Shown: piece by piece, positions 8,211 to 45,312 of the stretch | Position numbering within the stretch: position 1 is the stretch's first letter | How the letters are laid out: each line of letters starts with the position of its first letter | Source: Takakia lepidozioides | Lineage: Eukaryota; Plantae; Bryophyta | Length of the DNA stretch: 64,000 nt | Direction of reading: 5' to 3' | Assembly (NCBI GenBank): GCA_030704615.1 | Contig: CM060731.1 | Span: 52,824,001-52,888,000, forward strand | Position numbers and translations under genes: made by a program | The notes under the pieces: generated by a model | Seen by the model: only the letters and a program-made list of their open reading frames with translations | Databases searched by the model: none | Told to the model about the DNA's origin: nothing

Positions 8211-8428
8211 CACCATCCTCTGCATTCTAGGTCCCTCTCACACATTCTCGTTCTTTCTCTCTTCCCTTATCATCAACGTCACCCTTGTATCGGTATTTTT
8301 CTTCGAAATTGGAGACTCAGAGTTGCTGTTACCGTTCAGAAAGTGTTGCATAGAGAGGGAAAGTGAGCTATCGACTCTTTGGGAGCGTTAACAACTCGCA
8401 GAAGAGGATCTGCATTTAACGTCTGACC

Positions 8429-11400: not shown

Positions 11401-12893
11401 TGACTCAGAGAAGCAGTTAATACGCATTGACATGTCGGAGTATATGGAACAGCATTCTGTGGCCCGACTGATTGGTGCCCCTCCAGGGTATGTACCAGAC
11501 ATGGCCCCACCCCACATCCTGACTGCATGGGATGGCATATAAGATGGCCCTTACGTTCTGCTTTCATTGCCACTTTGATCTGATTCTCTCAATTCTAACA
11601 GGGTGTTGCTGAGGAAAGGTATGATGGAAATTTATGATTTACACACCTAACCATCTTTGAGGGCTCTACTAAACCAAGCTGGGTCAATACATGGCTGTGG
11701 CAGGTATGTAGGGCATGAGGAAGGAGGGCAGCTAACAGAAGCAGTCAGAAGACGGCCTTACAGTGTGGTGCTGTTTGATGAAGTGGAGAAGGCACACCCT
11801 GCTGTCTTCAATACCCTGTTGCAGGTTCTTGATGATGGCCGTCTCACTGATGGGCAGGGTCGCACTGTCGACTTCAGTAACACAGTCATAATATTGACAT
11901 CCAACCTGGGTGCAGAGCATTTACTTGCAGGCTTGAGTGGGGAGCAGAGTATGGTTGTTGCACGCGAAAAAGTGATGCAGGAGGTAGGCCTTCTCTTGCA
12001 TTGTCACATAAGGTTAGGTTGCTACAATCTGATTGCCTATGTTATGGTAGTATATCAGCTGTATCAGTTTAACTGTTAAGCTCCCTGTGTGGACAGTTTG
12101 AAACTCTGTAGTTACAACAGCTTTTAGAGATAGTGATATATTCTGACCTCGCATTATATGATTGAATGTCTGTCTCCGCCTGTACTCCTAGGTTCTGTAA
12201 TGTGAGTGGCTGACCAGTATTGGAATGGTGGGTTTCTAGGTGAAGAGAAATTTCAGGCCAGAGTTATTGAACAGATTGGATGAGATTGTCATCTTCGACC
12301 CGCTCTCTCAGCCGCAACTGCTCAAGGTGGCCCGCTTGCAGATGAAAGATGTTGCCGCGCGCCTTGCAGAACGTGGGGTGGCCTTGGCTGTCACTGATGC
12401 TGCCCTTGAGTTTGTGCTGGCTGAGTCTTATGATCCTGTAAGTCTAATTTGTCATTGTTATTGCAGTTATGTCGAGGCGCTTATTTATGGTCCTAATCTC
12501 ATACTGCCAGTCTATGCATCAGGAACTGTCAAGCATAATCATGGTGACAAAGGCACTGGCTAAGGTTTGTTTGTTATCACATTGCTGCAGGTATATGGTG
12601 CACGTCCACTACGGCGGTTTCTGGAACGGAAGGTAGTGACACATTTATCAAAGATGCTGATAAATGATGAAATTGATGAGAACTCCACAGTCCACATCGA
12701 TGCAAACGGTCGAGAATTGTCATTCCGTGTAGAACGGAATGGTGGCCTTGTTAATGAAACCACTGGTGCACGGGGAGACATACTCATTCAAGTTCCAAAT
12801 GGTTATCCCAAAGATGGGGGCTCATCACAGAGCATGAAGAAGATGAAGGTTGAGGAGATTTTCGATGATGATGCTGATGACATGCAAGATTAA
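8429..12893 (+). CDS. HSP101: Cytosolic ClpB/heat shock protein 101, 10 exons
   Basis: [14 protein letters not shown] start, Walker A motifs GEPGVGKT and [20 protein letters not shown], acidic C-terminus. Exons 8429-9120, 9309-9478, 9629-9774, 9906-10047, 10273-10454, 10634-10918, 11147-11487, 11704-11983, 12240-12437, 12591-12893, all GT-AG. Confidence 0.97.
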
Positions 12894-14568: not shown

Positions 14569-15963
14569 CTACCCTGCGGCAACAGCCTCCTGATTGCTCC
14601 CAGTAGCATCTAGAGGGGGAGAAGGCATAACCTTGCTGACAGCACTCTCCTCTGTGACCTTGTCATCTTTTTGGTTGTCTTTTCCTTTGGGACTCGTCCC
14701 CTTGGAGGCACGTTCCTGTACCTTCCCATTGCCCTCCGGTTGGACTCGGCGACTATCCTCCTCCTTCACTACCGCAGCTTCTTGTTGCTCCTGAGCTTCC
14801 TCTCCATCATCTACCCCAGTCTGCCGCAATTGTTTAAGTAGCGTAGCATTCTCCTCCTGCAACCTCTTGCACTCTTCAGAGACCCGGGAAAGTTCTGTCC
14901 GCAGAGCCATGTTCTCCACAGACAGCGTGTCAACTCGCGTACCCAGCTCCTCACACTCTGCCTGCTTCCGCAGTCGGGAACGTCTGGCTGACTCACGGTT
15001 AGACTGCTTTCTTCTCTGACGCTTCACCTCCCGCTCATCTTGTAGCCAGAGCTCTGGAGGAACGTTGTCACGGCTGCCAGTAGGAGCGCTAGATGTGGCA
15101 GCCAACATTCCAGTCGAAGTACTCGCGGAAGACTGCTTGCCAGCCTTCACGCCAAGAGTTGCAGGAGCGGATCCACTCCAGTAATCAAGGCCTATATCCA
15201 GACTTGGTGCGGGTGCACCCACCGGCGGGGGGCCTGCACCTGCAACAGCTTGACCAGTAGATGGGGCACCTCCTGCAGGCACAGCTGCACCTCCTGCCTG
15301 TAGATCATATGGCGGAATGCTAGTGCCTCCCACTCCAACGGCGTCCAGAGTCACCTGCTCAAAACTCCTCTTGCGCAGAATGTTTTGGGAGTTGTCCTCC
15401 TCACTGCCCTCACTAGAGCCTTCACTCCCACTCTCGTTGCTGCTGTGAGAAAACACCCCGTTGGCTGACCCCGTATTTCCTTTCCCTCCTTCCCTTCCTT
15501 TGCCAGTCACCATCGCAAGGCCGCCCTTACTGCCTTTCATGCGCTTCAAGGGGCTCGGATTCTTCCCACCTTCCAAGGGCTTGGTATCTGTCTCCATACC
15601 GGCCCCTGCACCAATCATTGCTTCAGTGGCACCACCAGGTGAGGGCATCCCATACTGGCCATAGAGATGAGATCCCGGTTGCATTGGAGGATGCCCGTAC
15701 ATTCCTCCGTGCGGATACATGGCACCGTATGAAGGATGCGGGGGGCCTCCGTAAGGCGGCATCATAGGCTGGCCTCCCCACATGTAAGGATGGGGACTGG
15801 ATGCCACAGATGGAGGAAAGAAGCCTGCAGGAGGCTGTCCACCCGAATTGTAATACGCTTGAAAGGCAGCAGCCCACTCAGGATATGAATGGGCTGGCGG
15901 CTGCTCCTGGGGGGTAGCCACCTTGGCAGCCTTGGTTGGCGTCCCTGTCTCGCCTGCCCCCAT
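14569..15963 (-). CDS. Group G bZIP (G-box binding factor), intronless CDS
   Basis: 464-aa ORF with a Pro-rich MFMR domain (YPEWAAAFQAYY, PHPYMWG) and basic region QDEREVKRQRRKQSNRESARRSRLRKQAE followed by a leucine zipper. Confidence 0.93.
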   Translation of the reverse strand: MGAGETGTPTKAAKVATPQEQPPAHSYPEWAAAFQAYYNSGGQPPAGFFPPSVASSPHPYMWGGQPMMPPYGGPPHPSYGAMYPHGGMYGHPPMQPGSHLYGQYGMPSPGGATEAMIGAGAGMETDTKPLEGGKNPSPLKRMKGSKGGLAMVTGKGREGGKGNTGSANGVFSHSSNESGSEGSSEGSEEDNSQNILRKRSFEQVTLDAVGVGGTSIPPYDLQAGGAAVPAGGAPSTGQAVAGAGPPPVGAPAPSLDIGLDYWSGSAPATLGVKAGKQSSASTSTGMLAATSSAPTGSRDNVPPELWLQDEREVKRQRRKQSNRESARRSRLRKQAECEELGTRVDTLSVENMALRTELSRVSEECKRLQEENATLLKQLRQTGVDDGEEAQEQQEAAVVKEEDSRRVQPEGNGKVQERASKGTSPKGKDNQKDDKVTEESAVSKVMPSPPLDATGSNQEAVAAG

Positions 15964-18490
15964 TGCTTGATAAGTCTTCTCACAGCTTCTGGTCGAAGTT
16001 CAAATCAGTGCTATCCCAAACAAAACGGTCATTTTGCTGCTTCCGAGATCACACTTACCCCAACTTTGCGCAATTGACATCATATTTGCCTCCTGCTACA
16101 TGCTCGATGGACAGGCTGCTACACAACCTAAGTGAAGATGAAAAAGGCTCACAAGTGGCAAGATCAGGCAGGTCAACCCACACAACCCTGATGGGCTAGA
16201 AAAACATCTAAGATCGGCCAGTCAAGACCCCAACCTCGCAAACAGTTGGGTGCAAGTCTTTAGACAAAACAGAAGAGACAATACAACTTTGTGAACATCA
16301 TCACCTGCACTGAGTGACAGGCAGAACAGAACAACCAAACCCCCCCAAAGATCCAAACATCTAACAACCAAGACGGACAGTGGCTTCAAAAGCACCAGAA
16401 GCAGTCGATCACACCAGTAACGGGTAACAAACACTCTCTCTACTTGAACCAGCCCAAAATCCCTCCCTTGGACCTTCAACCGGAACACTACAAAGAAACC
16501 CAGATGCCTACGAAGCGCAGTCGAGAAACTGGAGGGAACGGTAAAGCCGACTCGGCTCGCTAAAGGCCAGTAAAGACGGTGTGGTCACCTTGCAAGCGCA
16601 GGAATCAGCACCACAGTGTGCACACACTGGGGCCTCGGACGCCACGAGGCAAGTCTTGACAAGAGATTCGCTGGGACCCTGCCTGCCTTGAGAGATAAGT
16701 GAGACCATGTCACGATCCACGCGGCGGGGCATCACGGGAGCGAGCTTCATATCTGTCCACATGCGTGGGCATTCTTTTTTTGACTTGGGCACAAAGAAAG
16801 CCCGCGCTGTGGCTGCATCACTGCGCGCCAATGGCACGCTGCATCGGTGGACGCCATCGATGCTGCCGCCTTGCCATTTTGGCAGACCATCGCTACGCGT
16901 AATTTTCAACGGCACAGATGCCCCTCTTGCTTGCCACCCTAGTTTCTCCTCGTGGGTCTCGGAGAGGAAATCACCCGAATCCGTGTCCGATGTGGGTTGC
17001 CACAGGGGTGCTGGCGTTGGAACACGATTTGCAGAGGTGGGTTGTTTAGTGATCTGAACTGTCCGTATGACTCCCCCGTCCCCTTATTTGTTTGTGAGTA
17101 GGCATCTGGAAGTTGATGGGATGTAAGCTAACAGGGACCCTGGATGTGGGGATCACGATACGTCATTCCAATGAGGTTTGGGCGAGCTCTGATTTTGCTT
17201 GAGCAGGACTCGTGACAGTTCGTCCTTGGAAGCCATAAGCAGCAGGCTTGGAGACTTGTATGCAGTATTGCCATCAAGAGGACAAGAGCAGGTAAGTAAG
17301 CTTCCAAATCTAACCTGCGGGTGCTGTTTTGAAGGCTGTACTGTGCACCAAGTAGAACGTCGGCTATATTATCGCTGTGTGAAGCAAGATGCAAACTCTT
17401 ATTTTCCGTTTCAGAGAAGAGCTGTAATGTGGTCCTAAGTGAGCTCACAATTTTTATATTATCCTAAGTACTGTAACGTCATGTCGGCATGGCATGCACG
17501 TTTTGCTTTTCAGTCCTGTTGGGCTTTTAAGTCGTGTTAAATTTGACTTCCCTGTTTGAGTCTCTCAATCTCGTCATGGTTCTGCCAGTTAATCCCGAGG
17601 TTGAGCGTGGGTCTCTCAGCTGCAAGTTGGAATAGGGGAGAGAGAGATTGTGCGATGAGCATGGTTTGAATACTGTTGCTATAGGAACAAACCCTTATTG
17701 GTCGATGTTGATCCTACGAGTACACCTAGTCACATTGCCTCAGTAGGTCTTAGTACGAAGTTTTTGATCAAGTGGAAGCCCCATGATAAGCCTAACCACG
17801 GATGCGGGGACCAAGCTTACTACTGGTACCCGTAAGATCTTCCTGTGGAGGTGGTAAAAACATTTTCCATTTCCCCTCCTGTTCTCGTCTAATGTAAGGG
17901 TTCTAGAGTCTACAAGTTCGAAGCCAACTCTGGCCCTAGTTACGTGGACAGCAGCAGATTTCTTATTTTCACTTGAAGAGGCTGCATCACCAAAAGACAA
18001 TCCAGTTTAGTCTGGATTGTGGCTAAATATTTGCTAGTACTTTCTTCATCCTGACTTTGTTGAACTTCTTTCTGTGCATGCCGTTCTCCAGAGGTCTCCT
18101 TGGCACCAAAGGCATTTTATCGAAGCTTCTCTTGCCTTATCCTTATTTCTTCTGGGCATGCAGTATCATGTGGCCAGGTCAGTGCTAAAGGATGACTATG
18201 ACTTTCAATAATCTGAAATTTGGATGCTTCACCACTGAAAAGTTAATCTCTCTCAGCGGCTTTGTTGACAGTGGTGGCTATGGCTGGATGTGGAACAGCC
18301 TATGTTGTTTGGATGCTCTTTTATCCGTTCTCGTCTGTCGTTCCAGTTCCAGAAAACACAGAGTGATAGCAATTCTTTTTGCTATCCAGAGGGTGCCCCC
18401 CAGACAAGGGGATGTGGTCAACCATCCCATGACCCTCCAACCGTGAATTCTGTTCTTGTACTCTGCAGTGAGGGTGTTCATGATATACAG

Positions 18491-23095: not shown

Positions 23096-23223
23096 ATTGC
23101 ATGCTAACGCAACTAGTGGAACAGTTTTCCCTGTTAGCAGTTAAGAGTGTTCTAATCATCAGAACAATCACAGGAAGCATAAAAAGAGTTCATTGGATGC
23201 ATAGAGAGCTGAATACAACCGTC

Positions 23224-23467
23224 CAACATACCAGCAATATAAGACAGAGGGACAAGGTCTCCTGAAGCAGTGACAGTTCCTCTCAGCGGCAATTTCGGAG
23301 TGACATGAGAGTTTAGAAGCTTTTGCATGGCTTCCAGAATTTCCCAACGAATGCCTGAGTACCCTTGCATCAATGTGTTGGTGCGCACCAGCATGGCCGC
23401 TCGCGTGGTGCATGCTGGCAGGGTGTTACCGTCGCCCTTGGCACCAATGACTCCGGCATTGAGAAAC
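23224..23467 (-). pseudogene. PAL: Phenylalanine ammonia-lyase gene fragment (5' part of one exon)
   Basis: After a CAG acceptor: [40 protein letters not shown]...[23 protein letters not shown], including the MIO-forming ASG. Homology then breaks off abruptly. Confidence 0.9.
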
Positions 23468-25201
23468 CTGAACTCATATATTGTGCACGTGCGATATACA
23501 TAACATCAGCAGCGTATAAGTAGTTTTTCTCAAGACATTAGTCTATCCAGCCATGGTTCACTTACCAGGACCGTCGGCAGTTACTTATAGAGCACATTGA
23601 ATTACATGCCCCCCATCTCTCTTCCACAGCTTTATCAATTCACTTTGTTTCGATCATCAGGCTTGACACTCTCAAGACCCACATGGAGGCAAACACAGAC
23701 CTAAGAACCACCACGGTGCAGCTGAGCAGGCAGAGATTGATTCACGGCCTGCTAAGACCAAGCTGACTCTCCCAAGAACCTCGTAAACATCGGGAAACGG
23801 TGTGTGAAACCTCTCGGCGCTCTAGCACGCATGCCCAGCGCACGCGATGCCTCCCGCGCTGCAAGACAGTCTGGGCAATCCGGGCAGATATAAAACATTT
23901 GAAGACGACGGCTACGAAACGTGGCGACGAAACGTGGCGATGATGACGTGGCACTATGGCACCCTATGCATATGTATGCGATATACATAACTAGGGCCTC
24001 GCGATGCTCCGCATTACTAGCCACGAATTCTGAGAACTACGTTCAATTTGCACAAGGGGGGGGGGGGGGGTCATATGGTGTTACATACACACATCCAGTG
24101 TTTCATTGTTTGGCGCAAGAAGAAGGACGGAGTGTTGTCGAAGCTATCTCGACATTTCATTGTTTGGTGCAGATAAAATTATTCTTCCATCGAGGCTTTA
24201 TTTGAACTATACAACATATTTACAGTCAAACCTGGATAAATGTTACCTTTTTTTTTGTTATATCATCCTATATATTATGGTTTTCTTACTCGGTAAAAAT
24301 ATACACTAGGAAAGACAAAAAGAGTGTTATTTGTTATTTGTTATCGAATACCTACTCTCCTCTTTGTTAAGACAACTCTGTAATTGTTACATTCAATAAT
24401 AATAATAATAATAATAATGGTACTAGTATTCAAATTCATTTGAACTATTGAAATGGGCATTTCAATATTGAGATGGACACTTGAACTATTGAAATGGCTA
24501 GGAGAACCCTAACTGCCGCCTGTTAGGGTTGGGGGGCCCTCCACGGAACTCAAAAACCTCCTGGTAGGGTACGGCGAATGTTTACGGGAATAGAGAGAAT
24601 AGTAGGTTAAGCACTATGTGATGACACCTTCAATGTTAATGAGATACTATGAGCGTAAGTGTGAAGAAGAGAGGAAGCATCAGTGCTACATTTGTGCCAT
24701 TTGAGCCGACAGATGAAGAAATATGGGATATGGTTGCACAAAGTGAAGAAATGCATGAGGACGATGAAGAAGAATTAGTAACTTCGGTTCTACCTTCAGT
24801 CTCTTACTGAAACTGTTCATTTGTATCTTGCACAACAGGCTTACGATATTGGTGTTGCTCTTTCAAAGTGTTTATCCATGGAGAAGGAATTGCATCTTGC
24901 TAAGCAAACAAACTGCCGGCAAAGAGACATTACCCCATATTTTTTGCCCTCTCTCTAAATGTTATTTTGCATCTGAAGGACATGTTTCAATGTTTAAATT
25001 TCTAATTGTTACGTTATGATATTTCAACCTATTTTACTGTTATTTGATATAACTGCCTAATTGTTATAAAGTTCCTACTCTTGCAGCATAACATTTATCC
25101 AGGTTTGACTACCATAGGTGCCCAATGATGTGTTCAATGTGACTTTTATGACAAAATAGTTATTTTTTATTATTTATATTTTTAAGGGAAACACCTGGGA
25201 G

Positions 25202-28200
25202 CTATCGCTCACAAATCACGCCCCTTGATAGTGAGAGGAGAAAATAACCTCTTCGTCGTGAAGGCTTTCTGATTGGACATTGTCCAAAGGACCTGTTGCC
25301 AACCTCAATGCAGCAGCGACCTGGCTGCTTTCTAACACCTCTGACCTTCATCATTCTTATCACCTTTGCAGTATCATCCCACCTGCCAGCTGCAGCATAG
25401 ATGTTTGATAGCATCACATAAGTAGTAGCATCCAGTTGATCCCACTTGAGAATAGATTTAGCCGCACGTTCAGCCACCTCCATATTGCCATGCATTCTGC
25501 AGGCACCAAGCAAGGCTTTCCACACCACCACATTTGGTTGGACTGGCATTTTGTTAATGAAGTCCTCAACCTCATCCAATTGCCCTGCACGGCCAAGAAG
25601 GCCCACCATGCAGCAAAAGTGCTCCACTATACGAGTGAGGCCATGATCTCGACTCAGGGAATCGGAGTAGTGTCTGCCTTCATCCACTAGGCCCCCTTGG
25701 CTACATGCTTGGAGAACACTTATAAAGGTGATACTATTTTGCTTGAAGCCTTCCTTTTGCATACCTTCAAACAGTTGCAGGGCTTCCCTACGACAACCAT
25801 GCTGGGCATATCCTGCAATCATTGCACTCCATGAAACCACATTTCGTTCAGCCATTTTGTCAAACACTCCCTTTGCATCCTTGATGCTCCCGCATTTAGC
25901 ATACATGTCCATGAGGGCAGTGTCCAGAATGACACCTGGTACAATTCCAGCTTTCATGATGTCAGCGTGGATTTCTTTACCCTTTTCGAGAGCTGCCAGG
26001 CAGGCACAAGCATTGCAAGCAAAAATGAACGTAACCTGGTCAGGCTTCGCCCCTTCCTGCAGCATTTGTTCATAGGTCCCCAAAGTCTCCATCCAGCACC
26101 CATGCTGGGCATATCCTCTGATCATCGCATTCCAGGACACCAAAAAGACTCCCTTTGCATCTTCGATGCTCCCGCAGTTTGCATACATGTCCACAAGGGT
26201 ACTGTTCAGAATGGTATCTGGTACAATTCCAGTTCTCAAGATATCAGCGTGGACCTCTTTGCCTATTTCCAGGGCTACCAAGCTCGCACACACATTGCAA
26301 ACGCAGACAAACGTGACCTGGTTGGGCTTCACCCCTTGCCACATCATTCGGTCATAGGTCTCCAAAGCCTCCATCCCAAACCCATGTTGGGCGTATCCTG
26401 CGATCATCGCACTCCATGACACCACATTTCGTTCAGCCATATTGTCGAAGACTCCCTTTGCATCTTTTATGTTCCCGCATTTGGCATACATGTCCACAAG
26501 GGCAGTGTCCAGAATGACACCTGGTACAATTCTAGCGTTCATGATGTCAGCATGGACCTGTTTGCCTTTTTCCAGGGCTGCCAGGTTTGCACATGCATTA
26601 CAGATGCAACCGAACGTGACCTGGTCGGGCTTCACCCCTTCCCGCATCATCTGCTCATAGGTCCCCAAAGCCTCCATCCCAAACCCATGCTGGGCATATC
26701 CTGTGCTCATCGCATTCCACGACACCACGTCTCGTTCAGCCATGTTGTCAAAGACTCTCTTTGCAACCTTCATGCTCCCGCATTTGGCATACATGTCTAC
26801 AAACAAATGAGAATGCAAACAAATGTGACATGGTCAGGCTTCGCCCCTTCCCGCATCTTTTGCTCATAGGTCCCCAAAGCCTCCATCCCACACCCATGCT
26901 GGGCATATCCTGTGATCATCGCATTCCATGACACCACATCTCATCCAGCCATGTTGTCAAATACTCTCTTTGCAACCTTCATGCTTCCGCATTTCGCATA
27001 CATGTCAACAAGGCTATTGTTCAAAATCAGATTTGGTACAAGTCCAGCTTTCATGATGTCAGCATGGACCCTTTTCCAGGGCTGCCAGTCTCGCACAAGC
27101 CTTGCAAATGCAAACAAATGTGACCTGATTGGGCATCACCCCTTGCTGTATCATTTGATCATATGTCTCGAAGGCATTCCTACCACAACCATGCTTGGTA
27201 TATCCTGCCACCATATTGTTGAACACTAGACAGGCCTCCCTTACACTCCCATATTTGGCATACATGTTAACAAGGGCAGTCTCCCAATTTATATATGATG
27301 AAATTCCAGCTTTGATAATGTCATCATGGATATCTTGCCCTTCTCCAGGGCCACCATGCTGGCAACAACATTGAGAACACAAATGAATGTGGCTTGCACA
27401 CGCATTACAAATGCACACAAACGTGATGTGGTCGGGCTTCCCCCTTCCCCCATAATGGACCTCTTTGCCCTTTTCCAGGGCTGCCAGGCTTGCACAAGCA
27501 TTAAAAATGCACACAAACATGATGTGGTAGCACTTCACCCCTTCCCTCATCATTTGCTCATAGGTTTCCAAGGCCTCCGTCCCGCGCCCCTGCTGTGCAG
27601 ATCCTGCAAGCATCGCGTTCCACGACACCAAATCTCATTCAGCCATATTGTTGAACACTCCCACCGCATCCTCAATGCGCCCACATTTGGCATATATGTC
27701 CACGAGGGTATTGTTCAGAATCACATCTGGTACAATTCCAGCTTTGGTGATGCAACCATGCACCTCTTTGCCCTTTTCCAGGACTGCCAGGCTTGCACAC
27801 GCACTGCAAACGCACACAAACGTGATGTGGTCAGGCTTCACCCCTTCCACCATCATTTGCTCATAGGTCTCCAAAGCCTCCATCCCGCGCCCCTGATGTG
27901 CATACCCTGCAAGTATCGCGTTCCACAACACCACATCTCGTTCAGCCATAGTGTTGAACACTCCTTTCGCATCCTCAATGCTCCCACATTTGGCATACAT
28001 GTCCACCAGAGCAGTGTTCGGTGTTCCCTGCTCCTTTAGTTCCCGCGCCCTTGCTGTGCATATCCTGCAATCATTGCACTCCATGACACCACATCTCGTT
28101 CAGCCATACTGTCGAACACTCCCTTTGCATCCTCGATGCACCCACATTTGGCATACATATCCACCAGGGCAGTGTTCAGAATGACATCCGGTACAAGTCC

Positions 28201-33620: not shown

Positions 33621-34739
33621 CTCCTGGGGGGTGCACTCTTTATAAAATGTCCATATCACGTGCGTTCGCCGCCTAAAAAAAAAAAACCCCTGTATACGGG
33701 TCCTTGGATCATTTATACCCCCTCTGTACATTTGAAGATTATAAAACCCCCTCCTGTAAATATATAGGAATTTGTAAATTTTAAAAAGTACCCCCTGCTG
33801 TATGTATGTTTCCCTTTTCAATCATTAAAAAATACCCTCAAATATGTATATGTTTTTCTTTTCTTTTTATCAAGTTTATTCCTTTAAAAACAGACCTCAG
33901 CCTGTAGGTCCAAATTTTATGAAACCAAGTCGGTGCATCCCTACTAGTGTTGTGCAGGTCCAGGTTTTGACCAAGGGTATACGGCGGGTTAGGATTCGGT
34001 TTATCCGGACCCTGACTCGGACCTTGACCCGGTTTCATTTCAAAAGATGGTCTTACTGGGACAGATCTGGCATTAACCAGGTTAGACACATATGGAACAA
34101 CCAAGATTTTATGGACTCCACATCTATTGCTAGCATTGCAGGATCAGCCAGGACTTCCTCTGGCAGAATTCCTTTTCAGCACCCTTTAATCAGTCTTGAT
34201 ATGTCAGTAAGAGAAATTATAGTGGTCTCTACCCTTTCTCCAAGATTTACCCTATCTTGCCAGAATCTGTATTACGACTTAATTTTCCCTTTATTGATTG
34301 ATCACCAATAATACCATTTGTCTTTCTCAGTGTATCTGACTTGTAACAAGTCTTTGGGTATCCAGTACTCCACTGCTTCTATGATCATATGACAATATTC
34401 ATAATTTGAACATCCTTCCCTGAAAATATAACTAGTGTAACAAACTTTTCTGATTGGGATTAGAGTAATTAATAAAGCTAGACGGGACAACCATTCTTCA
34501 CTTCTAATTCTACATTCCCAAGGTGCTCGTGTAATACTGATCACTCCTCCCTTTAATCCCCATTTGTCATCTTCTTTCGCAATTGAAAGAAAGACCTTCT
34601 GTTGTATTGCTATTCGTAAGCTAAATTTTTTTCAGGAATGCTTTCCATTCCTCTGCTTCCGTTGACTCGTTCTTTTGTGATTTCAAGAAATCACTTAACC
34701 ATCCTTCCTTGAGTTCACTTGAACTCAACAACCGTTAGT

Positions 34740-35645
34740 CCCCAGTATGGTCGCCAAATGTTAACCGTTGGTTTATGACTTGGACAAAACTGGCTATCAG
34801 CACTACTGCCCATTTCCTAAGACATGCAACAGAGGTTGTCAGACGGTATGCTTTCAGAAACGATTACGAAGTAATCGTTTTAAGGATAGCTAAACCATGA
34901 ATGTCGTATGAATCTATATCCCTACAAGCTGCTTAATCCTATTGATTAAGCCCAACCTACAGTCTCTTTTCCATAAAAGATCTTAGTCGGAAGAACTGAA
35001 GCTTCTTTGTTCATACAAGCAGATGGTAGTCAAGACAAAACAAGAATTATTCTGAGATGATACACATTCTCACCATCTCACGTTCTCTCATAATGCGCAT
35101 TATCTCCATCTCATGTTCACTCTACATAGATATGCTTCGAATAGCATGGCTTTACTTCAGAGTTCGTCACATCATCACAGAAGTACACATTGAATCACTC
35201 TGAGTTCCCTGAATACACACTGATCACTGATACTCATATTGTTCATACTCATCTAAGTTGCGTGCAACCTTTTTATATTATGCTCGAAAGAGCCGTTACA
35301 GCCTGTGGTCGTTAATGACCGTTTGCCTAACTGCCTACGCAACCTAAAATGTTTGCTAAAATAGTGGCTTGTTGTAGTGGTCATGAGCCATAGTGGTAAA
35401 CGGTCCACTACTCCCTCTATTGGTTAAAGCCGATGCTAACGTGGTCGTGTGATATCGTGGTTCACGGCCCACGGTCACTACACTACCCACTACTGCTCCC
35501 GTGGTAATGTACCCTTGTTCTGCCATTTGCTAAGTACCGCGTATTTAGCCTTTTCTGTCCGTGACCAGGTAGTGTACACCAATCACCACCCGGTATGTCC
35601 CGTTGTGACCTTCGTTGTCTGGACCTCGTAGCATAGCCGTTATCA
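34740..35645 (-). mobile_element. LTR (34759-35645) plus tRNA-Arg primer binding site of a truncated Ty3/gypsy element (Tat/Ogre-like PBS)
   Basis: Minus strand TGATAACGG...CGGTTAACA (TG..CA with imperfect inverted termini), followed 2 nt later by TGGCGACCATACTGGGG. Degenerate internal sequence continues toward ~33900. Confidence 0.7.
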
Positions 35646-36055
35646 GTGTGAAACAAGAAATGTTGGTAGAGTTATGTGCATGCAACTACGCAACACATGA
35701 TGGTTTAGTAAACGGAGTAGACGGTATATTTAAACATACTTCAGTGTTAGCATATTCAACGCCTTTAATATCAATATATGAACTTTGAAGCGAGGCGGTT
35801 TGTTTGTTTTGTTTTGTTTCGTTTAATGAAAACTAGAGGTCGCACTTGGGCCTCGACATAGGAGACGCACTTGGATACATAGAAGATCTCACACTTGGGC
35901 TTAAGTGATGGACACTTGGGCCAACGGCACAGGCTACCCTAGTATGAAGCAAGGTATCTAAACAAACATCCAACTTCATTTTAATACATCGATTTCAATT
36001 CTTCATACATGGGCTTCGACGTAGGAGATGCACTTGGCTACATAGGGGATTGCAC

Positions 36056-36290
36056 CAGTGTTGGGCAGATATAGAGTGATCCGGATATCAAAATCCGGAT
36101 ATCAATTCGGATTCCAGTGGATCCGGATCCGGATCCGGCACCATTTTATTACAATTGTAATAATTGATTAAATAAAAATTCCAAAATATTATTCTTAAAA
36201 TTCATACATCCGGATGCTATATCTGGATTATTCTACAACCGCCGGATATTGTAATATGAATATCCGGACTTATGTATTGTTCAACTGGAC
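36056..36290 (+). mobile_element. Right-truncated hAT MITE
   Basis: Left TIR cagtgttgggcagat after the flank gattgcac (36048-36055). Has atccgga subterminal repeats and is homologous to 37825-38096. Confidence 0.7.
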
Positions 36291-36498
36291 GCTCTAACTT
36301 GGTAGGAAATTATGGACGTCATATTATCTCTCGTCCATTTGACGTGCGTCGATATATTCATAACGTAATACATTTAGATTGTATAAAGAGGGTACCCACA
36401 AGGGGAAGAGGCTCTTATCTATGCTAACTAAGGTATAACTCACGGTTATGATTCAATATGGTTCTTTCCGAAGTGACTCTCATCATTGCAACTTAGCT

Positions 36499-37335
36499 TC
36501 AGAAAAGTATGACATTCAGACCTCCATTCTCGTTCATAACTTCATAGCCACCAGAACGTTCTGCCCCATTAATTGACTGCGCGCAAATGTATGTTAAGGT
36601 ACTCACATAATTTCCTATTGTGCTACATGGCCAACAATCTTTATTTCCACACAGTCCAGCGGAGCAACTGCCAATAGTAATCATGGTTTCGCATTGGCTT
36701 CCCCATCCATTGTCCTGACAACAATCCGTTGAACCAAGATTCCATAAATAATAAATTATTGCCTGGCAGTCTGTAGTCAGAGGGCTAGCTTCAGAAGTCT
36801 GACAGACAGCCTGTGATTCGGCATGTGCTCCTGATACAACCACCACCCGCACACAAACGCAAAGCGATATTTCAGCTGTGAACATGCCCTAGATAAGAAA
36901 GTTGGTGGGATGGATGTGATGTTGTTTCAACCAGGACTGAACAACCTTGGACAATATTAAAATCAGAACCAAATCTTTGACTCTTTTTTCATGGCCGGAA
37001 CAAGGATTGATCACCCAATTTGTGATGTATAATTAATATTAATATCGAATTAAGCAGTTTAGGTGCATACACAAAAGACATGCAAGTCATGTCTCGTTTC
37101 AGTAAGCGGCATATATCCAAATCAAGATCCAGTATGAGATTAGTAGAAGACACATCGTGACAAAGGGCCTAATTTCATGCCAATCGAGATCAGAGCAGCC
37201 ATATCGAGACTTGAAAAAGTAGTAGAAATGAGATAAAAATATGGATTACTATGTGTGGAGGGGATTCAAACCAGTAGCCACAAGAAGCAATAGAAAGACG
37301 CCAAAATTGATCAAAGCAACTCGTGGTAGTGCCAT
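36499..37335 (-). CDS. Small secreted Cys-rich protein, fungal Ecp2/Hce2-effector-like (131 aa, 2 coding exons)
   Basis: Exon 1 37335-37272 (MALPRVALINFGVFLLLLVAT-g), GT..AG intron 37271-36831, exon 2 36830-36499 in frame (GAHA|ESQAVCQTSEASPLTTDC...RSGG...LNVILF*). Signal peptide with an A-H-A site; 106-aa mature part with 10 Cys. Candidate 5'UTR intron 37497-37369 and TATA 37645-37638. Confidence 0.8.
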
Positions 37336-37824
37336 GATTGTTTTTATCAAGAACTCGAATAAATCCACCTGCAAGAAAATGTGGGCATATTATTAGCTCG
37401 AATATTGTAGACTTGCTGATTCAGCTATATATTAGCTATAATCTCAGCTATACATAAACAAGACTCCTAACAACCAACAAATGCTGTCAGTAGTTACCAG
37501 AAAACTCGCAAACCTCAAGGCATTGCCCACATACCGTCTCAACACAAAGAGATGCAAGTTGGGCTTGTGAGAGTAGAGCGCTTAGTGCAAACACTTAGAA
37601 AGGGAGCGAAGACTTAGATATGAGGTCTCATGTAGTGTATATATAGTAACTTTTCTTGTCTCATGCATGCTAGTCAATATATGAAAAGGTGGTTTGTAAT
37701 TTGTTTGTTTTGTTTGTTTTGTTTTGTAACATTGAGATCTCCCAAACTGTGGGCCCCAACCCTGGTGCTCTTCATACATAGGCCTCAACATAGGAGACGC
37801 ACTTGGATACATAGGGGATTGCAC

Positions 37825-38096
37825 CAATGTTGGGCAAATATAGAGTGATTTGGATATCAAAATCCGGATATCCATTTGGATACCAAGGGATCCGGATCCG
37901 TCATCATTTTATTAAAATTGTAATGATTTAAATTGATTAAATAAAAAAAATCCAAAAAAAAAATCTACTATGCATAGTCCGCGCGGATATTAGAAATTCA
38001 GGTTATTGTAATATTCGGTTCGGATCCAATGGATACACTTTTTTCTAATTTGCGGACTCGACGAATATTACAAAAGCTACGATCCGCCCAACACTC
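37825..38096 (+). mobile_element. hAT-family MITE (272 bp)
   Basis: TIRs caatgttgggc / gcccaacactc with a perfect 8-bp TSD gattgcac (37817-37824 and 38097-38104). Confidence 0.85.
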
Positions 38097-38730
38097 GATT
38101 GCACTTGGCCTTAGATGACACTTGACACTTGGACCAATGACACAGACAATAATGATTGGCCCTTCATTTGTCGGTTGTGCCTGTTGACATAAATGTACAT
38201 TTGGTTTTGTTGAAATACTGATGTTTGCAATATTGTTTGTATTGTCGATGAGTAAGGACTTTTATCCTATGGGCCGAGAGTTATGGAGTTATAAACAATT
38301 TTGGCGCTAGAAATTCAACTAAATTATAAAATTGAGAGTGTTGGAATGACATTGGAGGTTGGACTTGGGCCTTGACATGGGAAACGTACTTGGATACATA
38401 TGAGATTGCATACTGGGCTTAGATGGGCCTTGACATAGGAGATGCACAGGGGAGACGCACTTGGACACATAGGAGATTGCACTTGAGCTTAAGACGACAC
38501 AGACACTTGGGCCTCTACGTGGAAGATGCACTTTGATACATAGAAGATTGCACTTGGGCTTGGATGGGCCTCGACAAAGGAGATGCACTTGGATGCATAG
38601 GAAATTGCACTTTGTCTTAGATTTGAATTCGTAACACATGGGCCAACGCCATAGGCTACACTAGCGGTCGTACTTGGACCTCGACATAGGAGACGCATTG
38701 GGATACATAGGAGATCTTGCACTTGGGCTT

Positions 38731-39975
38731 AGAGAGAGAAGACTCCGGCCGAAGCCGGCGTAACTAAGAGCCACTTCACCTTGCGGCTATTGTCCCCTGT
38801 CGGGGGTGGGCCCTATAATAAACACAGGTGTCCGGTTGGACACTTAGTAGCCAGGGGGTAGGTATGCTATGGTGTTAGAGAACAAGGGGGGTAGTACCCC
38901 CGAGGGGGCACCCCGGGGGGTGCCCTAGGGGTGTCTAGGGTAATGTTGTGAGGTTTTCGTTTATTGGTGATAATTGTTGTGAGAGAGCGGAGGGTTGTGA
39001 GGTGGATGGCTTGGAAACATTTATGGATAGGGGAGATAGGGATTTGAAAGTTGTTATGCACGTCGTTGGTGAGTGATGGGGATGTTGTGGTAGGATGTAA
39101 GGCAGTCTTGGGTAGACCCTGCACTAGTAGAATATCCGGGCAAAGTCTAGCTGGACATGTGCATGGGTGAGAAATACATGAGCATGGAAGTAGCCATGGT
39201 AGGACAATGTGGTCGGGTGGGCAGCCTTGGTATGTACCTGCGTTAAGGAGTGTGAACCATCTGGTTTCGGCACGGCTAAGAAGTAGTTTGTGGAGATGCC
39301 AAACTGCTTGGTTATGGCGAGTGATATGGAGGCCGTGAATAATGAGGTGTGTGCATTAAAATGTGCTTGCGTTGGTGGCCCATATACTGGGCGTATATGA
39401 ATTTAAGGGTTTGGCGGATTTGTGCATCTGTAGTGGTTTAGGTATTCCAAAAGTGGTTTGATAGTTTACATGGTGTAGTACCGTGGATTGTGTCCATTCT
39501 GAATGTGGACCTTAGTATGGCTAATTCATGATGCAATAGCTTGTTTGTTGGCTTCCCAGGAGAGGGTGGCAAGGATGTTTGCGAACAGGTCTGGGTGCGG
39601 GTGGGTCTGGGACGTGGGTATGAACCAAAATAGGTGAGTGTGGGCGATGTGAATAGGGTCGTCAGATGCGATTACAGGAGGCTTAGAGGCGCCGGCTTTG
39701 GGAAGTAAGTCGGCAACATCGTTGCCATGTATCCCGGTGTGCGAGCGGACTTTGCGGAAGTGGATGGGGTGGGATTTAGAGAGAGTTAATTGAACAATGG
39801 CAGTGATAAGGTTGCGGTCGGGGTGGTGGTGTTGGGATGAAGGGCGAGCGATGTGGTTCCTGATAAGGAAGAGTGAAGTAAGACCGTTGGTGAAAATATA
39901 GTAGAGGGAAGGGAAAACATCCAGCCTTGATAGGGCCTCATAGATTGCCATAAGTTCAGTACGTAAAATTGTGGC
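38731..39975 (-). mobile_element. 5'-truncated non-LTR retrotransposon with RNase H plus restriction-like endonuclease (Dualen/RandI-like)
   Basis: RNase H (TILRTELMAI..IFTNGLTSL..FRKVRSHTGIHGNDVAD), then degraded C..HGLHITRHNQAV and LCPDILLVQG (RHN and PD motifs of RLE), a structured 3' UTR and a (TC)n tail. Confidence 0.75.
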
Positions 39976-40326
39976 GGGGCCAATGACACAGGCTACCCTA
40001 GAGGTCGCATTTGGGCCTCGACATAGGAGACGCATTTGGATACATAGGAGATTGCACTTGGGCTTAGATGAAACTTGACACTTGGGCCAACGGCACATGC
40101 TATCCTAGATAGGAGATATGGAATTTCAAGTACTTTTGGTTGCTGAAAATTAGTGAAAAGTAGCAAAGTGGGCTTTCTTGGAACAATGATTGGATACATT
40201 ACTACTCAATAAATTCATGGAAAAAAATAAATTGGTTTTTCATTCTTTGTAACTAAAAAACATCCAACTTCATTTTACTAAATCGATTTCAATTCTTCAC
40301 ACATGGGCCTCGACATAGGAGACGCA

Positions 40327-40396
40327 GAGAGAGAAGACTCCGACTGAAGCCGGTGTAGCTGAGAGCCATGTCACCTTGCAATGACTGCCTCCCACC
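40327..40396 (-). mobile_element. 70-bp 3'-end copy of the Dualen-like element
   Basis: Homologous to 38731-38800. TSD ggagac(g/c)ca at 40318-40326 and 40397-40405. Confidence 0.8.
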
Positions 40397-40589
40397 GGAG
40401 ACCCACTTGGATACATGGGGGATTGCACTTGGACTTAGATGACACTAAACACTTGGGCCAACGACACAGGCTACCCTAGTCAATATATGAAGCAAGCTAG
40501 TTTGTTTGTTTGTTTGTTTTTTTTTTTTGTAGCGCTGAGATCTCCCTAACTGTGGGTGCCCCAGCCCTGTCTCTTCTGCTTCTCCTTTT

Positions 40590-42081
40590 AAGATAATAGC
40601 GTCTTCAATGCGCTATGGGCCCCGCCAATATGGCCCATGGGGTCAGCTCCTAAGACCAGCGCCCATCCACCGGGTCCGCTGAAGGGTCCATTGGATAGTC
40701 TAGTTTGTTTTGGATCAGGATCTGCTGGAGGGTCCAGTGACTTTCCAGAGTCCGCTAGAGAGGGTCCACTCCGCATGCTAGTCCACTCTGCAGTCTAGTC
40801 CGCTGGAGGGTCCACTCTACATGCAGAGTGGATTGTGAGTCTGCTGGAGGGTCTGCGCATGAGTCCGCTGGAAGGTCCGCCGCCGCAAAAGAACATGGAC
40901 TTAGGAAAATTTCAGAAAGAAACCATACATAATATATATTCAATAACACACACTAATGCCACAGTACCACCTGATAAGAATTGATCATCAAACCTCATAC
41001 TCACTATTCATTGCTGTTTACCACCCAAGTGTCCGCTACTTTTTGCAAACCTTTGAAACAACTAATGTTTTATGTGCATTACCAGAGCTTGTATGCTTGT
41101 CATCTCTTGGTTGGGATGTATCGCAACAGATTGGCTTGCCCGGTAGACCCAACAACGGACTGGCTTGCCTAACAGATTTTTAGACAGCCTATCTACAACT
41201 ACCATGATGCAGTCATGGACATTCTTGGTCCTGGGCAAAGCCATGATCAGACTGAGCCTCAGTGGACCCTCTGACGGGTACGAGCGCTCCCACTTGTCGC
41301 GCACCTCCTTTCGGTAAGCTCCCCTTCACGTCATAGTTACTCGCTTTGATGCGCGCGCCTGACTCCCAAATTGGCCGCCGGGCCAACTTGGAGCTTCGGC
41401 TGCTCACCGGGACATAACGGTCCCCCTTCGCTCCCCACTAAACCCTCCACCTATTTGGGACTAGGAGAATTCCCTTTGGTAGATGGCAGTCCGGAATAGC
41501 TCCCCACTCTTTGGTCGCTTTCCGGCTCGCTCGCTTACTCACTAGTTTTTGGTCACCAATGGGCTTGCACCGTTCTCGGGGTTACTACTCCCTATATATA
41601 CTTCTGTAGCTGTCCGCGGGGGTTTCACAACCAGCCATGCCATTTTATGGCGAACCACCACGAAAACCCTCGACTCCCGGTGATGAGTCGCGGTGAGTCT
41701 TGGCCCACTCACCACGGCCCCTATGGACCGTGATGAGTCCCAAGACTCCCCACGACTCCTACCACGAGGTCTCCGCCCCCATGGTGAGTCCTATGCCACC
41801 CCCACTAAGTCCCGCTAAGCTACCACCACCCCTTGTGGAGCCACCCCCACCACAACCCGGTGTGCGGGGCTCCACCTAGTGAGCGCCTCTGCCTCCTTGA
41901 GTGCCTTGGGCACTCAAGGGTGCTTCAGCCCCCCATACCTATCACTGCCGCTGCCCCCACCACAGGGGCAGCCCCTCATGTGTCCCGACCCCCTGCCCTC
42001 AAGGCAAAGGGCCGCGACACCACTGCTACACATGGGCCCCGCCATAGGCACACGCGTGCGCATTGAAGACGCTATTATCTT
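40590..42081. mobile_element. Non-autonomous TIR element (PIF/Harbinger-like termini) with mixed cargo
   Basis: Perfect 24-bp inverted repeat aagataatagcgtcttcaatgcgc (40590-40613 / 42058-42081). Internal gctggagggtcc repeats and gypsy pieces. No clear TSD. Confidence 0.65.
41179..41253 (-). mobile_element. Ty3/gypsy integrase core fragment
   Basis: SLIMALPRTKNVHDCIMVVVDRLSK. Confidence 0.75.
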
Positions 42082-43964
42082 TCACTGAGAAGCGTCTCTT
42101 CTAGGCTACACGTATTTCAATTCTTGTGAATTCATCCACTAAGTGGCTTTGCTCGGCCGATTTTTAGTCAGGGACAAATCCCCATCGCTCTGCGGGTCTT
42201 TGGTTCTACAAGGTTATTTTTTTCTTGACTAGTAAAGTGATCTAAATGGCTCCACTCGCAAGCCTTTTCTATATATACTAGGGTCGCCTGTGCCGTTGGC
42301 CCAAGTGTCCAATGTCATCTAAGCAATCTCCTATGTATCCAAGTGCATCTCCTATGTCTAGACCCAAGTGCGACCTCCATGGTAGCCCGTGCCATTGGCC
42401 CATGTGTGAAGAATTGAAATCTTAGACAAGCGCAATTTCCTACGTATCCAAGTGCATCTTCTATATTAAGGCCTGGGCACCTAAGCCCAAGTGCAATCTC
42501 CTATGTACCCAAGTGCTTCTCTCATGTAGAAGCCCAAGTGTGACCTCCAGTGTCATTCGGCTAACACTTAAATTTTGTAATTTAGTTGAATTTTCAACGA
42601 CCAAAATTGTTCATATTTCTATAATCCTCGGCCCAAATTTTCGCTAAGGTAGCTTGTACCATTGGCCCAAGTGTCCAACGTCATCAGCTAAGTCCAATTG
42701 CAATCCCCTATGTATCCAACAACGTCTTCTTTGTTGAGGCCCAAGTGTAACCTTTAAGGTAGCCTGAGCCGTTGGCCCAGGTGTCCAAAGTCATCAAAGT
42801 CCAAGTGCAATCCCCTATGTATCCAAAGACCCTGCAGTTTGGGAGATCTAGGGTAGCATACACTACATGAAAGGGGGGGGGGGGGGGGGGGTTTCACGAC
42901 ACCGGGACGTCGCTAAATCCCCTTTTTGGGGCAAGATAGAAGCCCCAGATTGCGACGCCCGGGCGTCGCAGCGGCGCGGCTAGAAATATCGTCGCTAATT
43001 TGCGACGTAGGGGGTCGCTAGGTAACGATGGGGCGACTTGCAACCACCGGACATCACAAATTTATAATTTTTAAAAAAAAATCTGCGATGCCGCATTAGC
43101 GACGTCCGGGGTCGCAAAGTGCGATCCCCGGACATCGTAATTTAGGGGGCCCGTACATTTGAATTTAGGTGGGAAAATTTGAACTTAAAAATTTGAATTT
43201 GAATTTCACAATTATTGACCATTGACTCCAGTTGTGTCCAATGGCAGTACGTTCATTGTTTTACATATATTAGGCAATGCATACTTGAACTTATGATCTC
43301 CACGTTATATCATTTCTAAGACACTACAGACTAACAAACACACCTACGATATATCTATGTATCACAAAAGCAGTCTAAGAATTTATATACATATCAAGAT
43401 TACTTTCAAGTTCTTTTTAAAGGGGTTTCTCTTGTGACGTCGGGGAGTTGCAACATCCGCAGTCTTAGTGCCCAGCCCTAGCCCCAGCCCCAGTGTCGTT
43501 GCCATTGTTGCAGCCCCAGCGCTACGCGCATCGAGGTCCCTGTGATGCCCTAATTTGGCTACGACACCGTTGTGACCCTCTGTGGCGACGCCGTTGCGAC
43601 CCCCTGATGTCGCAGTGTTGGGCGCCCCCAACGATGCTTTTGTGACGTTGGGAGGGCCGGAAGGCCCCAAAAAAAGAAAAAGAAAAAAACCTTTGTGGCG
43701 ACGTCATTGCAACCTCCCGACGTCGCAGTGTTGGAAGCCCCAGCGACGCATTTGCTACGCCTGGGGGTTGCAAGAAAAAAAAAACCCGTCGCAACCCCCC
43801 GTGGCGACGCACCACCGTCGCCTGTCCCAACGCCCTTGGGGCCCCCTTTCCCCCTTCATGCCACCTTGCAACAGCTGAGCGTCGTAGCGGGGGATTGCGA
43901 CGCTCGGGCGCCACGGGGGTGGCGTCGCAGGCCCAACGTGGGTATGTTTTATGTCGATTTTTAG

Positions 43965-44034
43965 GCAGATATTGATTAAAGGTAAATTTTGTGCCTTCCA
44001 AGCAGGGATATGGGTTCGATTCCTGTTATTCGCA
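43965..44034 (+). tRNA. trnG: Mitochondrial trnG(UCC) pseudogene (NUMT)
   Basis: gcagatattgattaaaggtaaa...gcctTCCaagca...gggttcgattcc...tattcgca. Anticodon TCC at 43997-43999, with several stem mismatches. Confidence 0.8.
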
Positions 44035-44062
44035 ATGGCTAAAAAAACCAAGTCAACTTCAT

Positions 44063-44425
44063 ATGCTTACATCGAGATTTAAAAGTTGTCATCGAATTTC
44101 AGAAAATGTTTGGCAGACTAAAAAACTTACTCAAAGACAAAAAGCCATTATTTTGCAGCTTCGAAGAAAACAAATAAAAAAAATTTGATTTTTCCAAACA
44201 ATTACAAACTATACAAAAGTTGCCATTTTTTTTTATGGAAATTTACCCATTAGAAAGAGGCAAAGGTCTAAAACGCACACTTATCTGGATATAAAAAATA
44301 GTTTGTTATTCGATAGAGAAAAAAGATTGGACGTTATTCCGGTTCGTCCTAATTCTCGTTCAACTATTTTTCAAGCAAGACAGCTAATAAGTCATAAAGA
44401 GATTTGTGTCAATTACGAAATGGTA
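44063..44425 (+). pseudogene. rps4: Mitochondrial ribosomal protein S4, 5' part (NUMT)
   Basis: MLTSRFKSC..ISENVWQTKKLT...DFSKQLQTIQKL..FYGNLPI...EKRLDVIPVRPNSRSTIFQARQLISHKEICVN. AT-rich, with homopolymer frameshifts. Confidence 0.9.
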
Positions 44426-45312
44426 GGGGGTTGCGGCTGACGTCATTAAACCCCCCCTCCATTTGCAGTAGTGATGTGTCATTGGCACATGTGTGACGAA
44501 TTGAAATCTAAGCCCAAGTGCAATCTCCTATGTATCCAAGTGCGTCTCCAATGTAGAGGCCCAAGTGCGACCGTCCAATGTCACCTAAGCCCAAGTGCAA
44601 TCCAAAGCCCACTTTGCTATTTTTGCAATATCCCATGTTGAGGCTTTATATATTGATATATCCATTTTGCTATGTTTCGCGAATTTGCTCTTGGAAAGCC
44701 CACTTTGCTAATTTATTGCTTTTCATGAATTTTCTGTGATAAAAAACACTTCTCCCACATGAAGGGCGAATCATTGCTATAGGAAAGTCCATTTTGCTAT
44801 TTTTTTCGCGAATTTCCAAAGACCAAAAGTACTGGAAATTTGACATCTCCCACACTGCAGGTTCGAAAATCATGAGACCAAACCGGTGCACCCCTCCTCA
44901 TCGAGGGCTTTCCAACGGTACCAAGCACTAACCCCGTCGTGTAACCCAATGTAACCCCAAGTGGAGTTACACACCTCGTTGTGTAACCCGGCTGGAGTTT
45001 ACACTCCTTCAGTTCCATGTCGCTCTCAAGGGGAAGATTTGACATGCTGGAAACGGGTGTACCATCGTGTCAGAGGTTGCAAGTGTGCATTAAGCTATTA
45101 CATTATTCATATTATCTTCCAATTAGTCCCGCACTTATAAAGTTCAGCCTGGCTTCCATCCCCTTTCTATTATTACACAAAAAATAAAAAACAGTAATGT
45201 GAAGTCCCAGCCCAACCCAGGTCCAGTTGAAACTTCCATTAATTACTGGATGGTGCTTCAGGCTGACTTACAGCCTTGAGATGTACAGTTTGTAGTTGCA
45301 AACGGTATGGAA

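Follow-up and report, generated by a model that had tools for sequence, protein, structure and literature searches.

Gene structure and transcription

The window, by which we mean the whole 64-kb stretch of DNA that was analysed, holds plant genes (PPR, ClpB, G-box bZIP and ubiquitin protease) and, on its minus strand, a gene for a small cysteine-rich protein that is referred to here as the 10-Cys gene. Its coding sequence joins 37335-37272 (64 nt) to 36830-36499 (332 nt), giving 396 nt and 131 amino acids with the sole stop at the end. The ten cysteines (positions 31, 43, 58, 59, 68, 77, 82, 87, 90 and 104) all lie within the predicted mature part. This exon join and its product of 131 residues with ten cysteines had been proposed by the initial annotation, and recomputation of the sequence across the phase-1 GT..AG intron proved the proposal correct. 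A start inside the intron, as placed by the open reading frame track, was rejected.

Read along the minus strand, the gene begins behind a putative TATA-like box (TATATATA, 37638-37645) with a non-coding first exon (37535-37582), over which a paralogue's spliced contig aligns at 37533-37582 and whose 5' end probably lies near 37610. A 166-nt GT..AG intron in the 5'UTR (37369-37534), evident from the sequence, separates this exon from exon 2 (37272-37368), which is supported by sequence and by contigs of run X5 and contains 5'UTR, the start codon (37335) and the larger part of the predicted signal peptide. The coding intron (36831-37271; 441 nt, phase 1, GT..AG) is at least 80% alike in several paralogues. 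The coding part of exon 3 (36499-36830) supplies the end of the signal peptide and the predicted mature protein of 106 amino acids, and is followed by a 3'UTR whose extent, as covered by an X5 contig, is 36134-36498.

The stretch is present in five of nine sequencing runs, which come from two studies. The four DNA runs all stem from a single sample, perhaps the one that yielded the window, and do not count as independent of one another. X5 comes from another sample and another study, and its RNA type was assigned by guess; we take it as RNA because its contigs carry intron-skipping joints. In two X5 contigs (summed depth 137.7) the 36830/37272 joint leaves out exactly 441 nt, a joint that is absent from those listed for DNA run X1 (15 of 16). 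The junction of 37271 and 36831, for which the initial annotation had looked to RNA reads, is therefore spliced in two contigs of a run whose RNA type is a guess. One of these contigs belongs to the 10-Cys gene itself (795 nt, depth 97.9), covers 37369-37271 and 36829-36134, differs from the window by a single synonymous mismatch and has its 5' end at the acceptor of the 5'UTR intron. The other derives from a paralogue (664 nt, depth 39.8) and skips both the coding intron and the 166-nt 5'UTR intron, which lends support to the latter as a candidate named by the initial annotation. If X5 does represent RNA, as indicated by the joints, the 10-Cys gene is a gene of three exons that is transcribed and spliced. 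A pseudogene reading was ruled out by the intact frame, the splicing and the frame-keeping gaps of the paralogues. Run X6, which carries the same species label, belongs to a third study and is likewise taken for RNA by guess, had no contigs over the exons; contigs prove presence and not absence.

Predicted protein properties and family tests

The 9-residue mean hydropathy of the N-terminus peaks at 3.2 near residues 11-19 and an A-x-A site precedes residue 26, features from which the protein is likely to be secreted. A small secreted protein with a signal peptide is a trait of the Hce2/Ecp2 proteins, and on the basis of hydropathy the 10-Cys protein shares it. The mature part is acidic (pI ~4.05; two K/R against ten D/E) and contains no N-glycosylation site. 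Amphipathic helical moments were found at aa 43-53 and 91-101.

When the whole protein was compared with 24,736 Pfam models, the sole match at E<=10 was Hce2 (PF14856; 17.9 bits, E 0.0037, profile positions 5-64). The cut-off for this profile of 103 positions is 25 bits, and the 10-Cys protein, at 17.9-18.6 bits, stays below it. The entire score is carried by residues 27-48 (36751-36816, minus strand), which as part of a 26-aa piece scored 18.6 bits (E 0.0023, profile positions 5-26). These residues hold the T-S-x-A-S-P-L-x-x-D-C motif and the start of a helix; the piece matches both the N-terminal motif and the first helix of the Hce2 profile. Pieces covering aa 52-91 and aa 70-131 were without any Pfam match, the remaining ~80 residues adding nothing to the Hce2 score, and neither of two cysteine-rich control frames that share the CCQxNG motif had a Pfam match. 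The hallmark of Hce2 is described as three conserved cysteines together with a W/F/Y motif (PMC12382754). Because the Hce2 score is confined to 22 residues, the resemblance is one of motif and not of membership. Hce2 had, moreover, been named beforehand by the initial annotation, so that a chance match is less likely. Its assignment to Hce2/Ecp2 was supported for the start of the protein, which matches PF14856 below the cut-off, and found no match beyond it.

Neither the KP4 model (PF09044) nor the DUF26/Gnk2 model (PF01657) was matched at E<=10 by the whole peptide or its pieces, and the solved KP4, Zt-KP4-1 and Gnk2 chains among the PDB sequences were likewise unmatched by sequence at E<=10. 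The moss KP4 genes carry PF09044, hence the link to them suggested by the initial annotation was not borne out. The C-8X-C-2X-C core of DUF26 is absent as well: cysteines 77, 82, 87 and 90 form C-x4-C-x4-C-x2-C, in which the spacing before C87 is 4 or 9. We do not file the 10-Cys protein as a member of Hce2, KP4 or DUF26, while it may work in a similar mode.

Two single-sequence AlphaFold2 models reached pLDDT values of 38 and 39, were mutually inconsistent and could not be used; fold searches with them returned generic helical or beta matches only and were discarded. The KP4 topology is given as H2-b1-b2-b3-b4-H3-b5-b6 with two antiparallel helices (PMC12382754). Inspected by eye, the layout of the 10-Cys sequence is compatible with helix, four strands, helix and two strands, which we treat as a lead only, and its size and cysteine number fit the KP4 superfamily. 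The protein probably adopts an Ecp2/KP4-type alpha/beta sandwich fold, and given such a fold a fungal origin of the gene would be quite probable.

Paralogues and a hypervariable core

The 10-Cys gene has paralogues, a family that the initial annotation overlooked and that emerged from X1 contigs at a likeness of at least 80%. The number of X1 contigs differing from the window is five at 36513-14 (the 3' end of exon 3), eight at both 36862 and 36887 in the coding intron, and nine at 37291 in the signal exon, while over 36644-36687 only the window copy aligns (depth 41.8) at 80% likeness. From these figures there may be at least five, perhaps about ten, other copies, contig counts not being copy numbers. 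No second copy lies inside the 64-kb window. The gene is flanked by two direct repeats of ~190 bp, also overlooked previously, which are 1769 bp apart; the upstream copy (37769-37957) is 90% identical (163/181) to the downstream copy (36000-36186).

In the paralogue contigs the signal exon and the introns align at 80% or more, whereas the centre of the mature domain, ~aa 60-90 (hypervariable core, 36628-36715, minus strand), does not. In three long contigs the alignment holds on either side of this core and breaks off across 36597-36784, 36601-36716 and 36627-36727, respectively. The first two of these gaps are unchanged in length though diverged in sequence, the third measures 99 against 102 letters, and the frame is kept in all three. 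One of the three, 1848 nt long, shows 26 differences over 36784-37006, a span that reaches into the intron, and fails over 36598-36783.

Of 40 indels the 12 listed were considered, every one of them in an intron. Individual variants were taken as the best 40 of 216 rows, picked by support; 15 of them are substitutions in the coding sequence, one of which is the X5 allele. Among the same 40 rows, the mature part has 12 changes from paralogues, 11 of them non-synonymous, as against none of the two in the signal part. At omega 0.2, strong purifying selection is rejected by 11 non-synonymous changes in 12 (P 4e-4), a figure also compatible with neutrality (P 0.21). The alignments make the better case for diversifying selection, since introns can be aligned between copies more readily than the coding core. 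A contrast of this kind could also be produced by gene conversion.

Homologue searches and origin

A word search of 5.8 billion proteins returned no candidates at near lengths, and at longer lengths none of 21 candidates was related. Related loci numbered 0 of 69 in metagenomes, 0 of 19 in prokaryote genomes and 0 of 4 in viral contigs, and tblastn against plasmids and phages gave no match to the 10-Cys protein. The PDB sequences yielded only two chance OspA rows, and none when the motif piece was used alone; NCBIfam yielded none for the protein, and PHROGs a single chance row of eight residues. The initial annotation had pointed to ascomycete secreted proteins with a C-x-Q-x-N-G-x-G-S-x-C layout. 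A DNA pattern for CCQxNGxGSxC hit 118 metagenome loci, all of which were scored; all 118 looked like chance, the best 25 of them being without flanking similarity, and that family was not confirmed. The DNA pattern of the N-terminal motif occurred at two prokaryote loci, both unrelated, and at no viral locus. Absence from fungi is not implied by these blank searches, since they need near-identical words or cover prokaryotes. As no homologue was found in the collections reached, neither a donor nor a tree can be offered.

The CpG ratio of the coding sequence is 0.54 against 0.45-0.65 in the host, and its GC3 is 0.34 against 0.52-0.54. With CpG depletion at the level of the host, nothing in the base composition points to a recent transfer; GC3, being low, is ambiguous.

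Fungus-to-bryophyte transfer is reported to be common (PMC12513842), so this kind of event is already known, and the transfer of KP4 from fungi to mosses, cited second-hand in PMC12382754, PMC10462633 and PMC11228847, is a precedent. In the literature searched, which did not extend to the extensive HGT tables belonging to PMC12513842 and to Guan et al. 2023, no account of Hce2-like genes from a non-seed plant came up. If fold and origin hold, what would be new here is a case on the Hce2 side that is amplified and diversifying.

Comparison with known KP4-fold proteins

KP4-fold proteins have been sorted into four groups (PMC12382754). In the accessible text of that survey, moss KP4 (Group 1) and the Gnk2 cluster are the only plant members named, and all five HCE2-labelled clusters of its table have fungal representatives. 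The survey would not have captured the present plant because, as described there, it was built on UniProt/AlphaFold DB and 1014 fungal genomes. Compared with Hce2/Ecp2 (PF14856; KP4 Group 2; Zt-KP4-1/Zt-NIP1, PDB 8ACX), the 10-Cys protein is likewise a small, predicted secreted cysteine protein with the N-terminal motif and a domain of similar length (106 against 103). It differs in its sub-cut-off score, in its ~80 unmatched residues and in having ten cysteines as against the two disulfides of Zt-KP4-1 (PMC12382754); it is, furthermore, encoded by a plant, while the description of Hce2 is that of a family of fungi (PMC6637899).

With UmV-KP4 and moss KP4 (PF09044; Group 1) it shares the capacity for five disulfides, the number described for UmV-KP4 (PMC12382754), and the moss genes provide the precedent of a killer-fold gene in a non-seed plant. 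Unlike these proteins it matches neither PF09044 nor a KP4 chain, and it is acidic. If fungal, the 10-Cys gene would be an acquisition separate from moss KP4. KP4 Groups 3 and 4, which mostly lack a Pfam domain, resemble it in that neither Pfam model is reached above cut-off, but according to PMC12382754 their representatives are all fungal whereas the 10-Cys gene is in a plant; this comparison is by description only.

Ginkbilobin-2 and other single-DUF26 proteins (PF01657) are secreted plant proteins, as is predicted for the 10-Cys protein, with a domain of ~100 aa and a C-x2-C (aa 87-90 in the 10-Cys protein), and ginkbilobin-2 is an antifungal lectin with a KP4-like sandwich. In contrast to them, the 10-Cys protein has no PF01657 match, no C-8X-C-2X-C, ten cysteines as against six core cysteines, and an Hce2-like N-terminus. 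DUF26 is described as having the same sandwich fold and as structurally close to fungal lectins; Gnk2, LDL and Y3 bind fungal glycans, and liverworts and mosses possess secreted forms with a single domain that show lineage-specific expansions (PMC6368629).

Proposed function and alternative explanations

We tentatively favour, from the sequence evidence, a diversifying family of secreted proteins with an Ecp2/KP4-type fold that would inhibit fungi, probably came from a fungus and would be distinct from moss KP4. The signal peptide would send the protein to the apoplast or the plant surface, up to five disulfides would lock a scaffold made of the N-terminal motif, two helices and C-terminal strands, and the variable centre could form a binding face for a microbial target that keeps changing. 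At 5.5 uM, HCE2-domain Zt-KP4-1 caused an inhibition of 91-95% in two fungi and no necrosis in wheat, and hyphal growth arrest is reported for both Zt-KP4-1 and UmV-KP4 (PMC12382754); by analogy, the most likely outcome would be an arrest of hyphal growth. How KP4 proteins disturb calcium and what they bind is called unresolved by PMC13211469. For the 10-Cys protein, with its two basic as against ten acidic residues, the membrane may be a less likely target than a specific glycan or protein on the fungal surface. As with antimicrobial peptides in general, acidic charge makes a cationic membrane attack unlikely. A disturbance of calcium might also occur. The copies would probably multiply in repeat-rich DNA, perhaps aided by the flanking direct repeats.

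A fuller scenario strikes us as conceivable rather than probable: a non-seed land plant would independently have captured an Ecp2/Hce2-type gene, given it a spliced promoter unit of its own, multiplied it in repeat-rich DNA to 5-10 copies and, through an arms race with fungi, diversified its central face, so that a weapon of fungi became an antimicrobial or decoy repertoire of the plant. If fold and origin are true, this would be a second independent entry of a fungal KP4-type killer fold into plants, on the Ecp2/Hce2 side, with a borrowed gene turned into a fast-diversifying family rather than a relic. The family would then also provide natural variants for probing the ligands of the KP4 fold and a candidate source of antifungal proteins. 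Should the connection to fungi not hold up, these expressed orphan genes, with their hypervariable core and from a plant lineage that is poorly sampled, would still be good candidates for a role in defence.

Among the alternatives, the one that retains most weight, while unlikely, is a lineage-specific family of cysteine-rich secreted plant peptides of unrelated fold, diversified through defence, cell-cell or reproductive recognition, in which the Hce2-like start arose by chance or convergence. Many plant families of cysteine-rich peptides combine a conserved signal exon and a variable mature part, the Hce2 match spans 22 residues and lies under the cut-off, and homologues were found in no collection reached, all of which suits this explanation. 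Against it, the one match among 24,736 models fell on the family predicted beforehand (E 0.002-0.005), and, judged by eye, the KP4 topology agrees with the size of the protein and with where its helices are predicted.

It is distinctly unlikely that the fold and the fungal origin are as we propose while the protein acts on the plant's own cells (growth, calcium gradients) or manages fungal or cyanobacterial symbionts. Such a role would agree with moss KP4, which reportedly alters calcium gradients and cell development in the moss itself (second-hand, PMC12382754 and PMC11228847), and with an acidic charge that speaks against membrane attack; an arms race is nevertheless the better fit for a core whose divergence, in several copies, outpaces that of the introns.

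Very unlikely is a secreted lectin of the single-DUF26 (Gnk2-like) type, inherited vertically and strongly diverged, which would have the KP4-like fold without any new transfer. It would draw on the shared sandwich fold, on the single-domain secreted forms of liverworts and mosses (PMC6368629) and on the C-x2-C at aa 87-90, near the predicted second helix, yet PF01657 was unmatched at E<=10, the C-8X-C-2X-C is missing, the PDB sequences gave no Gnk2 match and the N-terminal motif matches Hce2 instead.

Genomic context

A DNA contig of 778 nt, with no mismatches, joins exon 3 of the 10-Cys gene to the flanking downstream repeat (36072-36849) at the depth of the unique flanks (42-49), repeats reaching depths thousands of times higher, and the core word of that repeat recurs across the window, including at 48263 and 62695. 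Physical integration in the plant genome and splicing were both found for the gene. Its residence in a land-plant genome, as put forward by the initial annotation, was supported by the plant neighbours, the contig running into the host repeat and the copy in a second study; contamination as its source is unlikely. That a fungal contaminant or endophyte segment was joined into the plant assembly is hardly credible: the fungal-like motif, the low GC3, the derivation of the four DNA runs from one sample that is possibly the window's source and the fact that no listed contig spans the whole locus would allow it, but it is opposed by this contig and its flank-like depth, by the recurrence of the repeat's core word, by the spliced form with one mismatch in a second sample from another study, by paralogues at similar depth and by the host-like CpG depletion.

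The surroundings of the gene consist of very high-depth repeats, broken PPR, PAL and RNase H pieces and an rps4-like piece. A very high-copy modular repeat built on the CCAAGTGC word occupies 35780-44600, and also 48263 and 62695, in both orientations. At 33830-35250 lies a decayed, coding-like repeat of high depth that had no Pfam match in the three frames tested. A short repeat with terminal AG runs (38731-38817, 40332 and 45318) flanks an RNase H fragment at 39526-40104 (minus strand; PF00075, E 6e-8), which is probably a decayed non-LTR retroelement. A frameshifted fragment of ribosomal protein S4 behind a tRNA-like end at 44040-44430 (plus strand; TIGR01017, E 3.9e-15) is probably a mitochondrial rps4 insertion; several of its residues look as if they may require C-to-U editing.

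Between 19000 and 33650 runs a tandem array of PLS/E(+)-type PPR sequences, mostly broken and almost wholly self-repeated, inside which a phenylalanine ammonia-lyase-like fragment is found at 23152-23505 (minus strand; PF00221, E 4e-26). The array includes a stop-free PPR-E frame of 543 aa at 25202-26833 that, from its sequence, may or may not be intact, and the statement that the 10-Cys gene is the only intact gene in ~25 kb is accordingly unproven.

The G-box-binding bZIP gene at 14569-15999 (minus strand) is a single frame of 476 codons and apparently intronless, which is unusual for the bZIP family. Its top 10 database matches are 47-55% identical and spread widely, gymnosperm and liverwort sequences being about equally distant, so that the host is a land plant lacking close relatives in that database. 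Taken together with the PLS/E-type PPR array, this makes a non-seed lineage probable, in keeping with the bryophyte-grade plant proposed by the initial annotation. At 8420-12893 (plus strand), a multi-exon ClpB/HSP101 gene with short introns adjoins a P-type PPR gene on the opposite strand.
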